Assembly (NCBI RefSeq): GCF_054482595.1
Contig: NZ_CM137008.1
Direction: 5' to 3' (one strand)
DNA length: 64,000 nucleotides
Program-made: the position numbers
Part shown: positions 29,401-32,400 of the stretch, piece by piece
Layout of the letters: the number at the start of each line of letters is the position of its first letter
How positions within the stretch are numbered: the first letter of the stretch is position 1

Positions 29401-32400
29401 CAGCCTCCTGCATACCATAGTTCAACGATAACCAGTATGAATCTTTCAGGCTGGGATAAAGCGCGCACAGTTTCCAGGCGCGTTTGGCTTTAAGCGGCAT
29501 AGAGGCTTGCACCGTGAAATGCTGCGCATCATGCCAGCGCAACAGGTTATCAGCCGAAAATGCCGGCAACATGAAAAGGGAAAGAAGTAAAAATAGCAGT
29601 ACGCGCATGATAGCCTCATCAATAATAAGGCTTTATGCTAGATGCATTCCGCTTTGCGACTCAACATTTTTCACCTAAAGGATGACAAAATCACATAAAT
29701 AATTTAAAAATCATAGCATTAGATTACTTAATGATTAAATAATAGACTGCAAAACGCGACAAAACACAACATATCCAGTCACTATGAATCAACTACTTAG
29801 ATGGTATTAGTGACCTGTAACAGAGCATTAGCGCAAGGTGATTTTTGTCTTCTTGCGCTAATTTTTTGTCATCAAACCTGTCGCACTCCAGAGAAGCGCA
29901 ACGCCTCGCAATCCAGTGCAAAGCTTTGCGTGCCCCCACTACGACCTGCATAACCAGTAAGAAGATAGCAGTGATGTCAAACGACGCAGATGTCTTCTTT
30001 TCTTTCATGACTTCTCCAGCATGCATATCTTTCTGCCATGACTGAAGTGAATGCCTGTTATGAGCGAGGATTGGCCCAGACTTAGATAATGAGAGAGCAC
30101 GGTGCTAATACCCAGACACGTCACCAGCCAGGCAACAACAGATGGGGTCATAGCAACATTTTGGAAGGTATCTTCGTATCATGATGTGGTTAAATAGACA
30201 TAATTTAACCCAATGGAATTTTCGCCATGCTAACCTTCTGGCACGAATATTCAGATCTCATATCCGCATTTTTAGCAGCTCTTTTAGGTGGCTGTTTCAC
30301 GATGATTGGAGTGACAACTCAGGTGAAACAGCAGGCAAAACAGCAGGCAACAGCGGCCAGAGAGAAGCGTATAACAACGCTATTGGGTGTCAGAGAGGAA
30401 ATAGACTCACTGATTAAACTGTATCAGGCCAGAATGGCAGAAGAAATCGAAAAATACGACCGGAACTCACCGTTCGATAACATTTTCCCCATTACTCAAA
30501 ACTACTTCACGTTCTATGAAGCCAACTCGGCATCCCTACCTGAAGTTCATAGAGAAACACTCTCAAAAATTGTGGCTTTTTATACAAGCGCAAGAAGCCT
30601 AATTGATTCCTATCGCGGCAATAATGCGCTTATCGAACGGCTAGACTCCACGCAGGTTGCAAGTGACATTACTGGCAACAAAGAACATCTTGCACACCTG
30701 AAAAGATACACAATCCTAGCCACAGAGTACGGCCGCGGATTAATGATGATTCATGATGAGGTCATGCTCCGCTATAAACAGGTTATAGAAGCCATCGATG
30801 GTGAAATCTCACAGCTACAATGCAGTTAGCACTACAACCTGTCCGCATATTGAGCGACACGGTCGGATTTAGTGGGCTGAATGTCCGTTGTGAGCACTTA
30901 ACGGACATTGCTAACCGCCTTCTGAGTGAATTATCAGGGAGTAGGTCAAGATGGGACGTAGAGCACAAATCGTGGACAACATTTTTCGGGCACTTTTTAA
31001 AAATGACTAAACTGGTAAAATTCGATGTTATGAGCTGCGCTTTTAAGGGCCGTTAGTCGCATAGATTGTTAATCTATTCAGCGTTACTCATTCTCCAGAT
31101 TACCAGTTTAAATGGATGCACGGCCACCATGTTAAAATCTAACGCGGCCCTAAAGTCAGAGTGTAATGGGAAATGCAAGAAGTTATTTTCGTGCGCGTTC
31201 ACTGGCGCACCTTGAGCAACCATTTCTCAATGCGTCTTAAAAGAGATGACTTGACTAAATTATGTATGCACTATCTGAATCTGATTTTTTTACTTAAAAG
31301 GGGGTTTTCAATGACAGCAATAGCCTGCTGGCTAAACAGGGAAGAAGGGGAAAGTATCTGGGCCGTAAGCGACTCAAGAATCACCCAGCATGAAAGTGTA
31401 ATGACAAATCACTGTCCTAAACTATTCTCGATTCCGGTATCAGTTATTCGCTCCAATGACATATACCGTCTATCTCCGGAAAAAATTATGGAGTTTGGTT
31501 TCGGCTTTGCAGGAGGAACAATGATCGGTATAAATGTGAAGGAGTTACTTGCCGTATCATTATCTTCATTACATGAAGTTAATTATTATGATGTTCAGCA
31601 GCCGGAGTTGACTTATGATAGTTACCCGAGTCTTTATGAAATTGCAGTTTTAACAAAGGGAATCGCAGAAAAATTTATACTGGATATTGGCCAGTTTTTT
31701 CCCCGTTCTGTAGCAACGGAGATGATTATTTACGGATTCTGTTTCAGAACACAGGTACATAAAATCATTAAGATCTACAACACCCCATCAAACCCCACTA
31801 ATCTTGTAATTGAGGACTGCCTTGACCTGACAACAGGTACCCCGGTAGTCTTGGGAGACAGAAAGCAGCAGTTTCGGGAAGATATTGAGATGACGAGGGG
31901 GCGTTTTGAGAATGGCACACTTAACTGGTGGCGGGCGCCATTTATCGCGTTAAACAACTGGATATCACAGGACACCGTAAATACAATTGGTGGGTATATT
32001 CAGTTCTCAATGGCGAATAGAATTGGCGCAAGAAATCTTTTTATGTCCAGCTCAGAGTCTAACCCCCTTGATATGACCTATGCCGGAATCAGTAATACAA
32101 GTGCTCCAGGATTTACCATTGGACAACTTAGTATTATGCCAATGTTAGGTATGACCCTTCCTGGGGAAAATGGCTGGCCATACGGCGATCAAATACTCCA
32201 TAATGATTAGAAGGTTAAGTATTTTATATTGGATATATGGCTATTGTGCTGCCATGATTCTAACAAATTATGCTTAAGAGGTGGTGCAACTCCTCTCATA
32301 CAAAAAATACGTAAAATCAGTAACGGCTGGAAATAATTCAATACATACACTCTCGAAAGTGCATCAGCCAACCGCAGCACGTCTTGCATACGGCGTGTCT

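Follow-up and report, generated by a model that had tools for sequence, protein, structure and literature searches.

The 64,000-nucleotide stretch of DNA analyzed here (the window; contig NZ_CM137008.1 of NCBI RefSeq assembly GCF_054482595.1) carries at positions 29827–29867 a hairpin that is the tI/sib element known from phages lambda and HK022. An earlier reading made from the sequence alone (the sequence-only reading) had described a tI/sib-like hairpin at this place. That description was correct and even understated what is present, since base-for-base identity with lambda and HK022, together with curated features in phage records, identifies the homologous element itself, which is real and already known. 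We consider it to be, with a probability of about 0.93, the tI/sib retroregulator of a lambdoid phage that combines lambda-type arm sites with an HK022-type core and integrase (Int), found here in the prophage state at attR, one of the two attachment (att) junctions of the prophage.

The strongest evidence is sequence identity. Alignment with the lambda sib/tI region, which had been proposed as a way of checking the hairpin, gave 122 identical bases out of 122 between window positions 29776–29897 and positions 27508–27629 of lambda (J02459, reverse strand), a segment that includes the hairpin and both of its flanks. Against HK022, window positions 29820–29871 are identical at 52 of 52 bases. 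Two curated features coincide with the element: the “Transcription terminator tI” of phage O276 is an exact match at 29828–29867, and the 50-nt “sib transcription processing site” of HK022 (X51962, positions 190–239) is an exact match at 29820–29869. A blastn comparison with phage records recovered lambda and its relatives (88.7% over 374 nt) and also HK022-type phages. The claim that the hairpin lies at the same distance from the att core as in lambda holds as well. The lambda core (27724–27738) falls on window positions 29667–29681, and with no gap in the alignment between core and hairpin, the two distances agree to the base.

The hairpin reads ATTAGCGCAAG-GTGATTTTTGTCTT-CTTGCGCTAAT-TTTTT. 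An inverted repeat with a T-tract had been noted from the sequence and is indeed present and directional, although its perfect arms are 11 bp rather than 10 bp long (29827–29837 and 29852–29862, with a spacer of 14 nt between them). When one G-U pair is counted in addition to the 11 perfect pairs, the tI stem on the + strand comprises 12 pairs (29827–29838 and 29851–29862; the whole tI hairpin spans 29827–29862) and encloses a small apical stem-loop. It leads into a T6 tract at 29862–29867, the putative U-tract of an intrinsic terminator. Perfect inverted repeats of at least 11 bp with a loop of 3–20 nt occur just once in the 64 kb, at this position (block-shuffle mean 0.3), and the 41-mer of the hairpin likewise occurs once, where none is expected. 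As + strand RNA the hairpin alone is predicted to fold at −18.7 kcal/mol (z = −6.7) and a 66-nt extended form at −24.3 kcal/mol (z = −5.6), with none of 200 shuffled sequences folding as well in either case. A simple terminator scan made no call at the hairpin because the loops it considers are limited to 3–8 nt and the loop region here is 14 nt; this is a limit of the tool and does not count against the hairpin. Read on the minus strand, the stem leads into UGCUCUGUU and not into a U-tract, and the element is therefore a one-way terminator facing + strand transcripts.

The symmetry continues below the tI stem. A repeat search extends it to 18-nt arms (29820–29837 and 29852–29869) that are 83% complementary, and these arms together with the predicted fold define the extended imperfect sib duplex (29820–29869, + strand), in which ACAGAG would face UUUUGU. 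According to the predicted folds, an RNA ending in the U-tract forms the 12-pair hairpin only, and a longer RNA adds the ACAGAG/UUUUGU extension, giving a read-through duplex of 18–19 stacked pairs with one internal mismatch (29820–29838 and 29851–29869). The sib duplex would close only in RNA that reads past the U-tract, and this duplex is the presumed substrate of RNase III.

Conservation of the element is strict. The hairpin was aligned with 12 further phages and prophages, which include lambda-core and HK022-core members, phi80 (represented by a record without the core), and one prophage at lambda attB. Both stem arms and the T-tract, including all of T6, are invariant in 12 of 12, while the loop varies among them (T5/T6, T to C, and T to G). 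In HK022, Gally, and an Stx1a phage the DNA past TTTTTTGTCA is unrelated, with homology ending at ~29871. An IMG/VR scan found the exact stem in 118 contigs, among which the loop takes 13 forms, and in 117 of them the hairpin adjoins a P1-like arm site. A second IMG/VR scan selected 96 hits by P1 and the downstream T-tract alone, without requiring the stem; the exact stem is nevertheless kept in 93 of the 96, and the other 3 have a single mismatch.

The surroundings of the hairpin account for its strand and its side of the att site. In the window, torCAD, torR, and torT are followed by the attR of a lambdoid prophage at HK022 attB. The bacterial flank consists of the host gene torT (28580–29608, minus strand; ORF list and RefSeq annotation of near-identical genomes; ORF, open reading frame) and the bacterial B′ arm, the torT-proximal part of the torT–torS intergenic region (29609–29666, + strand), which is nearly identical to K-12. 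Over 29400–29680, the window differs from K-12 at four positions (29435, 29477, 29499, and 29666), of which only 29666 is in the B′ arm. The att core (O) of attR, TTTTTCACCTAAAG, occupies 29667–29680, where the lambda core maps without gaps. Its part TTCACCTAAAG (29670–29680) is identical in the window, K-12 attB, and HK022 attP, while the full 14-base core is common to the window and K-12 attB only, HK022 having TTATTCACCTAAAG. We take TTCACCT at 29670–29676 to be the HK022-type 7-bp overlap. Homology with prophage-free K-12 stops at 29680, 11 bp before the annotated K-12 torS start, and the phage side of the junction tracks HK022 attP. By published mapping, too, the HK022 attachment site lies between torT and torS (PMC6814406).

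The P arm of attR, delimited by alignment with lambda and HK022 attP, extends from 29681 to 29822. It contains two Int arm-type sites mapped from the misc_binding features of lambda, the equivalent of “int 2” at 29771–29790 and that of “int 1” (P1) at 29803–29822, the latter ending 5 nt before the stem. Judged from these alignments, the junction is attR (P-O-B′) in flipped orientation, and the + strand of the window therefore corresponds to the strand of the leftward pL and pI transcripts of lambda. To the right of the hairpin lies the equivalent of the b region, with three + strand cargo ORFs followed by tail-fibre genes on the minus strand. The earlier placement of the hairpin on the leftward-transcript strand and on the b-region side of att thus agrees with both the orientation of attR and the b-region-type cargo beyond it. 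A search inside the 64-kb window for attL, int, and a second copy of the core found none of them; the prophage runs off the right end.

Compared with lambda tI/sib (J02459 ~27530–27585), the element has the same sequence, strand, distance to the core, and P1 neighbor, and the same predicted terminator and read-through duplex. The core and inner P arm, by contrast, differ from lambda and are of the HK022 type, with 44 mismatches to lambda between 29667 and 29775. As a result of its HK022-type core the prophage lies at torT|torS rather than at gal|bio, the site of the lambda prophage. The cargo of the window beyond ~30095 is also unrelated to lambda ea59. HK022 shares the core type and the integration site, but its homology with the window ends at 29871, just after the U-tract, and further on the window tracks lambda. 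By alignment, then, the att module is a mosaic of an HK022-type core and inner P arm with a lambda-identical outer P arm and tI/sib, followed by ~200 nt of lambda-like sequence. HK022 differs in its mode of antitermination as well, which relies on put-RNA, whereas an N peptide is encoded by the prophages whose sequence agrees with both ends of the window's prophage part.

Such prophages reveal the remainder of a lambda-type circuit. Strain EC5502 was compared over two stretches only and matches the window at 99.8% in 29403–30400 and at 100% in 58000–64000; the right end of the window is matched at 100% by 4FM and by pSM107_MCR as well. Onward from there, EC5502 has cII, cro-like and cI-like genes, an N peptide, cIII, kil, gam, bet, exo, xis, and int, the last of which abuts torS ~48 kb from the hairpin. 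CREC-2 similarly has N, cIII, cII, xis, and an HK022-type int adjoining torS. Over the 110 C-terminal residues compared, the Int of EC5502 shares 99% identity with that of HK022; its identity with lambda Int is 72%, and the P′ arm of attL in the matching genomes is of the HK022 type. In the prophage, sib at the torT junction is consequently set apart from int at the torS junction. The attL core of CREC-2 and EC5502 is TTCACCTTAAG, as opposed to TTCACCTAAAG at attR in the window and at K-12 attB, so that the two junction cores of one prophage type differ by one base.

The sib element has been the textbook case of retroregulation since the early 1980s. In the work of Guarneros, Schmeissner, Court, Echols et al., pI RNA reportedly stops at tI and keeps a protective hairpin, while N-modified pL RNA reads through; RNase III is said to cut the completed sib duplex, after which 3′ exonucleases degrade int. 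It is the distal sib site that makes the Int yields of pI and pL differ, and retroregulation lowers the pL-derived int mRNA (PMC2951348; PMC5300877). Applied to the present phage, the order in free or excised DNA would be int, P′, core, P arm, and tI/sib. Transcripts from the cII-activated pI promoter would end at tI and retain the protective 3′ hairpin, allowing Int to be made. N-antiterminated pL transcripts would pass the U-tract and complete a sib duplex of ~20 bp, which RNase III would cleave, and the resulting 3′-to-5′ decay of the int message would leave more Xis than Int. Integration would leave sib on the torT side, ~48 kb from int. The pL transcripts of an induced prophage would then escape sib control and, because sib is detached from int, could supply both the Int and the Xis needed for excision. 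In the lysogen, tI would incidentally be the first terminator met by unmodified host transcripts entering from the torT–torS intergenic region. The predicted folds fit this retroregulation account.

Several points weigh against identifying the element as a working retroregulator in this phage. Termination, RNase III cleavage, and an effect on Int are proposed here by homology with lambda. The window does not extend to int, xis, N, and cII, for which the only evidence comes from the genomes that match both ends of the prophage part. A scan of 29300–30600 with Rfam 15 (E ≤ 1) returned no family for sib, nor one for an “antisense RNA” annotated in phage DN1. Among the 96 IMG/VR hits selected independently of the stem, no compensatory stem pairs were found, and the structure is backed, as far as the alignments go, by strict conservation and by homology to a characterized element rather than by covariation. 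Finally, a fold of 29790–29900 predicts an outer helix (29810–29884, + strand; GUGAC at 29810–29814 with GUCGC at 29880–29884) that would form in read-through RNA only. This helix is common to the window and lambda and is not found in HK022, Gally, or the Stx1a phage, and its role in the element is uncertain.

Among other explanations, a function in the lysogen itself deserves the most attention. Carey et al. (2019, eLife) mapped two torS transcription start sites (TSSs) in non-lysogens: TSS2 adjoins attB and is ablated by integration, and TSS1 lies on the torS-distal (torT) side of attB-HK022 (PMC6814406). The same study found prophages at HK022 attB in ~5% of sequenced E. coli (PMC6814406). 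In the window the bacterial sequence on the torT side of the junction is intact, and by the published mapping the TSS1 promoter region is kept there, pointing into the prophage. Because TSS1 is on the torT side of attB, it reads, in a lysogen, into attR on the strand where tI terminates. Its transcript would cross the core and the P arm and meet tI in terminating orientation ~150 nt inside the prophage. A simple scan, which is not conclusive, found no consensus promoter from tI to the first cargo ORF (30227). The proposal of the sequence-only reading that the hairpin insulates the cargo from tor-side transcription therefore has the right topology, and such an effect is plausible. It is unlikely, however, that keeping IscR-controlled TSS1 transcripts out of the cargo genes is what the element was selected for in the lysogen. 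The same element occurs with the same spacing in phages that integrate at other sites, for example lambda attB, and so was not shaped by the tor locus; moreover, the position of tI is fixed by attP and int. Any insulation is probably a by-product, at most an additional incidental effect that is compatible with retroregulation.

A related and rather doubtful idea is that tI acts as a boundary element with respect to TSS1: it could either shield the AT-rich cargo (30227–33877) from host transcription or, by partial read-through, couple that cargo to oxygen status. A shared IscR repressor site of torS and torT makes it probable that TSS1 responds to oxygen. If true, this would give a classic element a second role, in the prophage state. 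The prophages studied by Carey et al. have the same integration site and the same attL/attR architecture as the one described here; there, a phage promoter on the attL side drives torS, and the paper mentions attR once and sib not at all (PMC6814406). Whether tI stops transcription from the TSS1 promoter is a natural follow-up to the published rewiring of tor regulation by prophages at this site. At the same junction, the likely −10 hexamer of torS TSS2 spans the att core and changes from TAAAGT in K-12 to TAAAGG at attR (window 29675–29680). The assignment of TAAAGT as this hexamer is our own and fits the published ablation of TSS2 on integration.

That the hairpin is a plain intrinsic terminator for int/pI transcripts or stray host transcripts, without RNase III retroregulation, is very unlikely. 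The hairpin and its U-tract are by themselves directly recognizable as a terminator, and the outermost read-through helix is not kept in the HK022-type relatives. However, the whole segment that would form the sib duplex is lambda sequence base for base and matches an HK022 feature annotated as an RNA processing site. The E. coli host has RNase III, and the genomes that match both ends of the prophage part carry an N-type antiterminator.

It is still less probable that the region encodes a protein and that the palindrome is incidental to coding. A 77-aa ORF does overlap the hairpin on the minus strand (29793–30026), as had been noted, and hypothetical proteins are called here in relatives by some phage records and by the NCBI Prokaryotic Genome Annotation Pipeline (PGAP), which calls a 70-aa version in CEA106S, though not the ORF of CREC-2. 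A short hydrophobic N-terminus (MHAG..KEKK..FDITAIFLLVMQVVVG, start at 30026) is also common to four homologues and is similar over the first ~33 codons. Yet three of the four substitutions relative to lambda in this shared N-terminus change the amino acid, and the frame is not maintained beyond it. A 1-bp indel relative to lambda at ~29934 falls between the ORF start and the hairpin, so that in lambda the ORF stops short of the hairpin at 53 aa. The C-terminal portion of the ORF, including the stretch over the hairpin, falls into a different frame in each of the window, lambda, and CEA106S, in part because of the T5/T6 loop polymorphism. Strain 214-4 has a broken ORF, owing to a deletion and a 17-bp insertion, and the upstream half is missing from HK022, Gally, and Stx1a phages, while the hairpin remains unchanged. 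Searches of Pfam and PHROG with the 77-aa sequence gave no match. The suspicion that the ORF is probably not real is supported by its shifting frame and by this lack of a family; as these comparisons indicate, the complete ORF is not conserved as a gene and should not be annotated.

A protein-binding site at the DNA level within attP, for example an extra Int, integration host factor (IHF), or Xis site, can be dismissed almost entirely: the palindrome does abut the P1 arm-type site and its copies are P1-linked in 117 of 118 cases, but it lies outside the annotated Int-binding sites of lambda, its GC-rich stem and single-strand-specific U-tract have the form of a transcript signal, a position immediately past attP, which the element requires, accounts for the P1 linkage, and sib mutations act on the expression of Int, not on recombination itself.

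The tI/sib retroregulator of a lambdoid prophage remains the reading we prefer, and its main use here is in annotation. It fixes the boundary of the prophage (attR core at 29667–29680) and its orientation, and it identifies the phage as a hybrid in which the arm sites, tI/sib, and downstream flank are of the lambda type and the core and integrase are of the HK022 type. Nothing new is added to the biology of sib.

The ~200 nt that follow tI (window 29870–30095) are 88–97% conserved with lambda 27330–27537 and with several prophages, from which they differ by 1-bp, 6-bp, and 17-bp indels. It is within the equivalent of this region that the record of phage DN1 annotates the “antisense RNA” mentioned above. 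The one match of the Rfam scan, to a long noncoding RNA at 30128–30194, was rejected as a chance hit.

Three AT-rich cargo ORFs (31–45% GC), all on the + strand, lie between tI/sib and the tail-fibre assembly gene. The first (30227–30829) encodes 200 aa with a weak ZorB/MotB-like match (E = 0.002), the second occupies 31173–32210, and the third (32618–33877) encodes 419 aa and matches only phrog_19262, a family of unknown function. No Pfam, NCBIfam, or clear PADLOC family was found for the three proteins, and a 48-aa ORF likewise had no family match in Pfam, PHROGs, PADLOC, or NCBIfam. The cargo may be an uncharacterized moron or defence cassette. The slot directly after tI/sib is also a cargo hot spot in the prophages of E. 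coli VCSW7, 214-4, 1506, and CEA106S, where it holds an MFS (major facilitator superfamily) transporter, a diguanylate-cyclase sensor, an FRG-domain protein, or hypothetical genes, oriented as the hairpin is. Homology breaks at ~29871, 29932, or 30070.

Up to window position 35234, which takes in attR, sib, and the cargo, CREC-2 is 98.8% identical to the window, and beyond this the match is patchy. It diverges in the tail-fibre and late regions, while its early-left proteins, from N to Int, are the same as those of EC5502. By these comparisons, this is a clear case of lambdoid mosaicism around a shared att/sib/cargo module. The same phage as in the window is also carried by the 111-kb plasmid pSM107_MCR (NZ_CP130669.1), which is 99.9–100% identical at both ends of the prophage part. 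Its junction (1440–1560 of the compared stretch, corresponding to the window from 29670 onward) lies inside a truncated thermonuclease gene. This integration is at a secondary site, with the core ATTCACATAAAGG as opposed to TTCACCTAAAGG.

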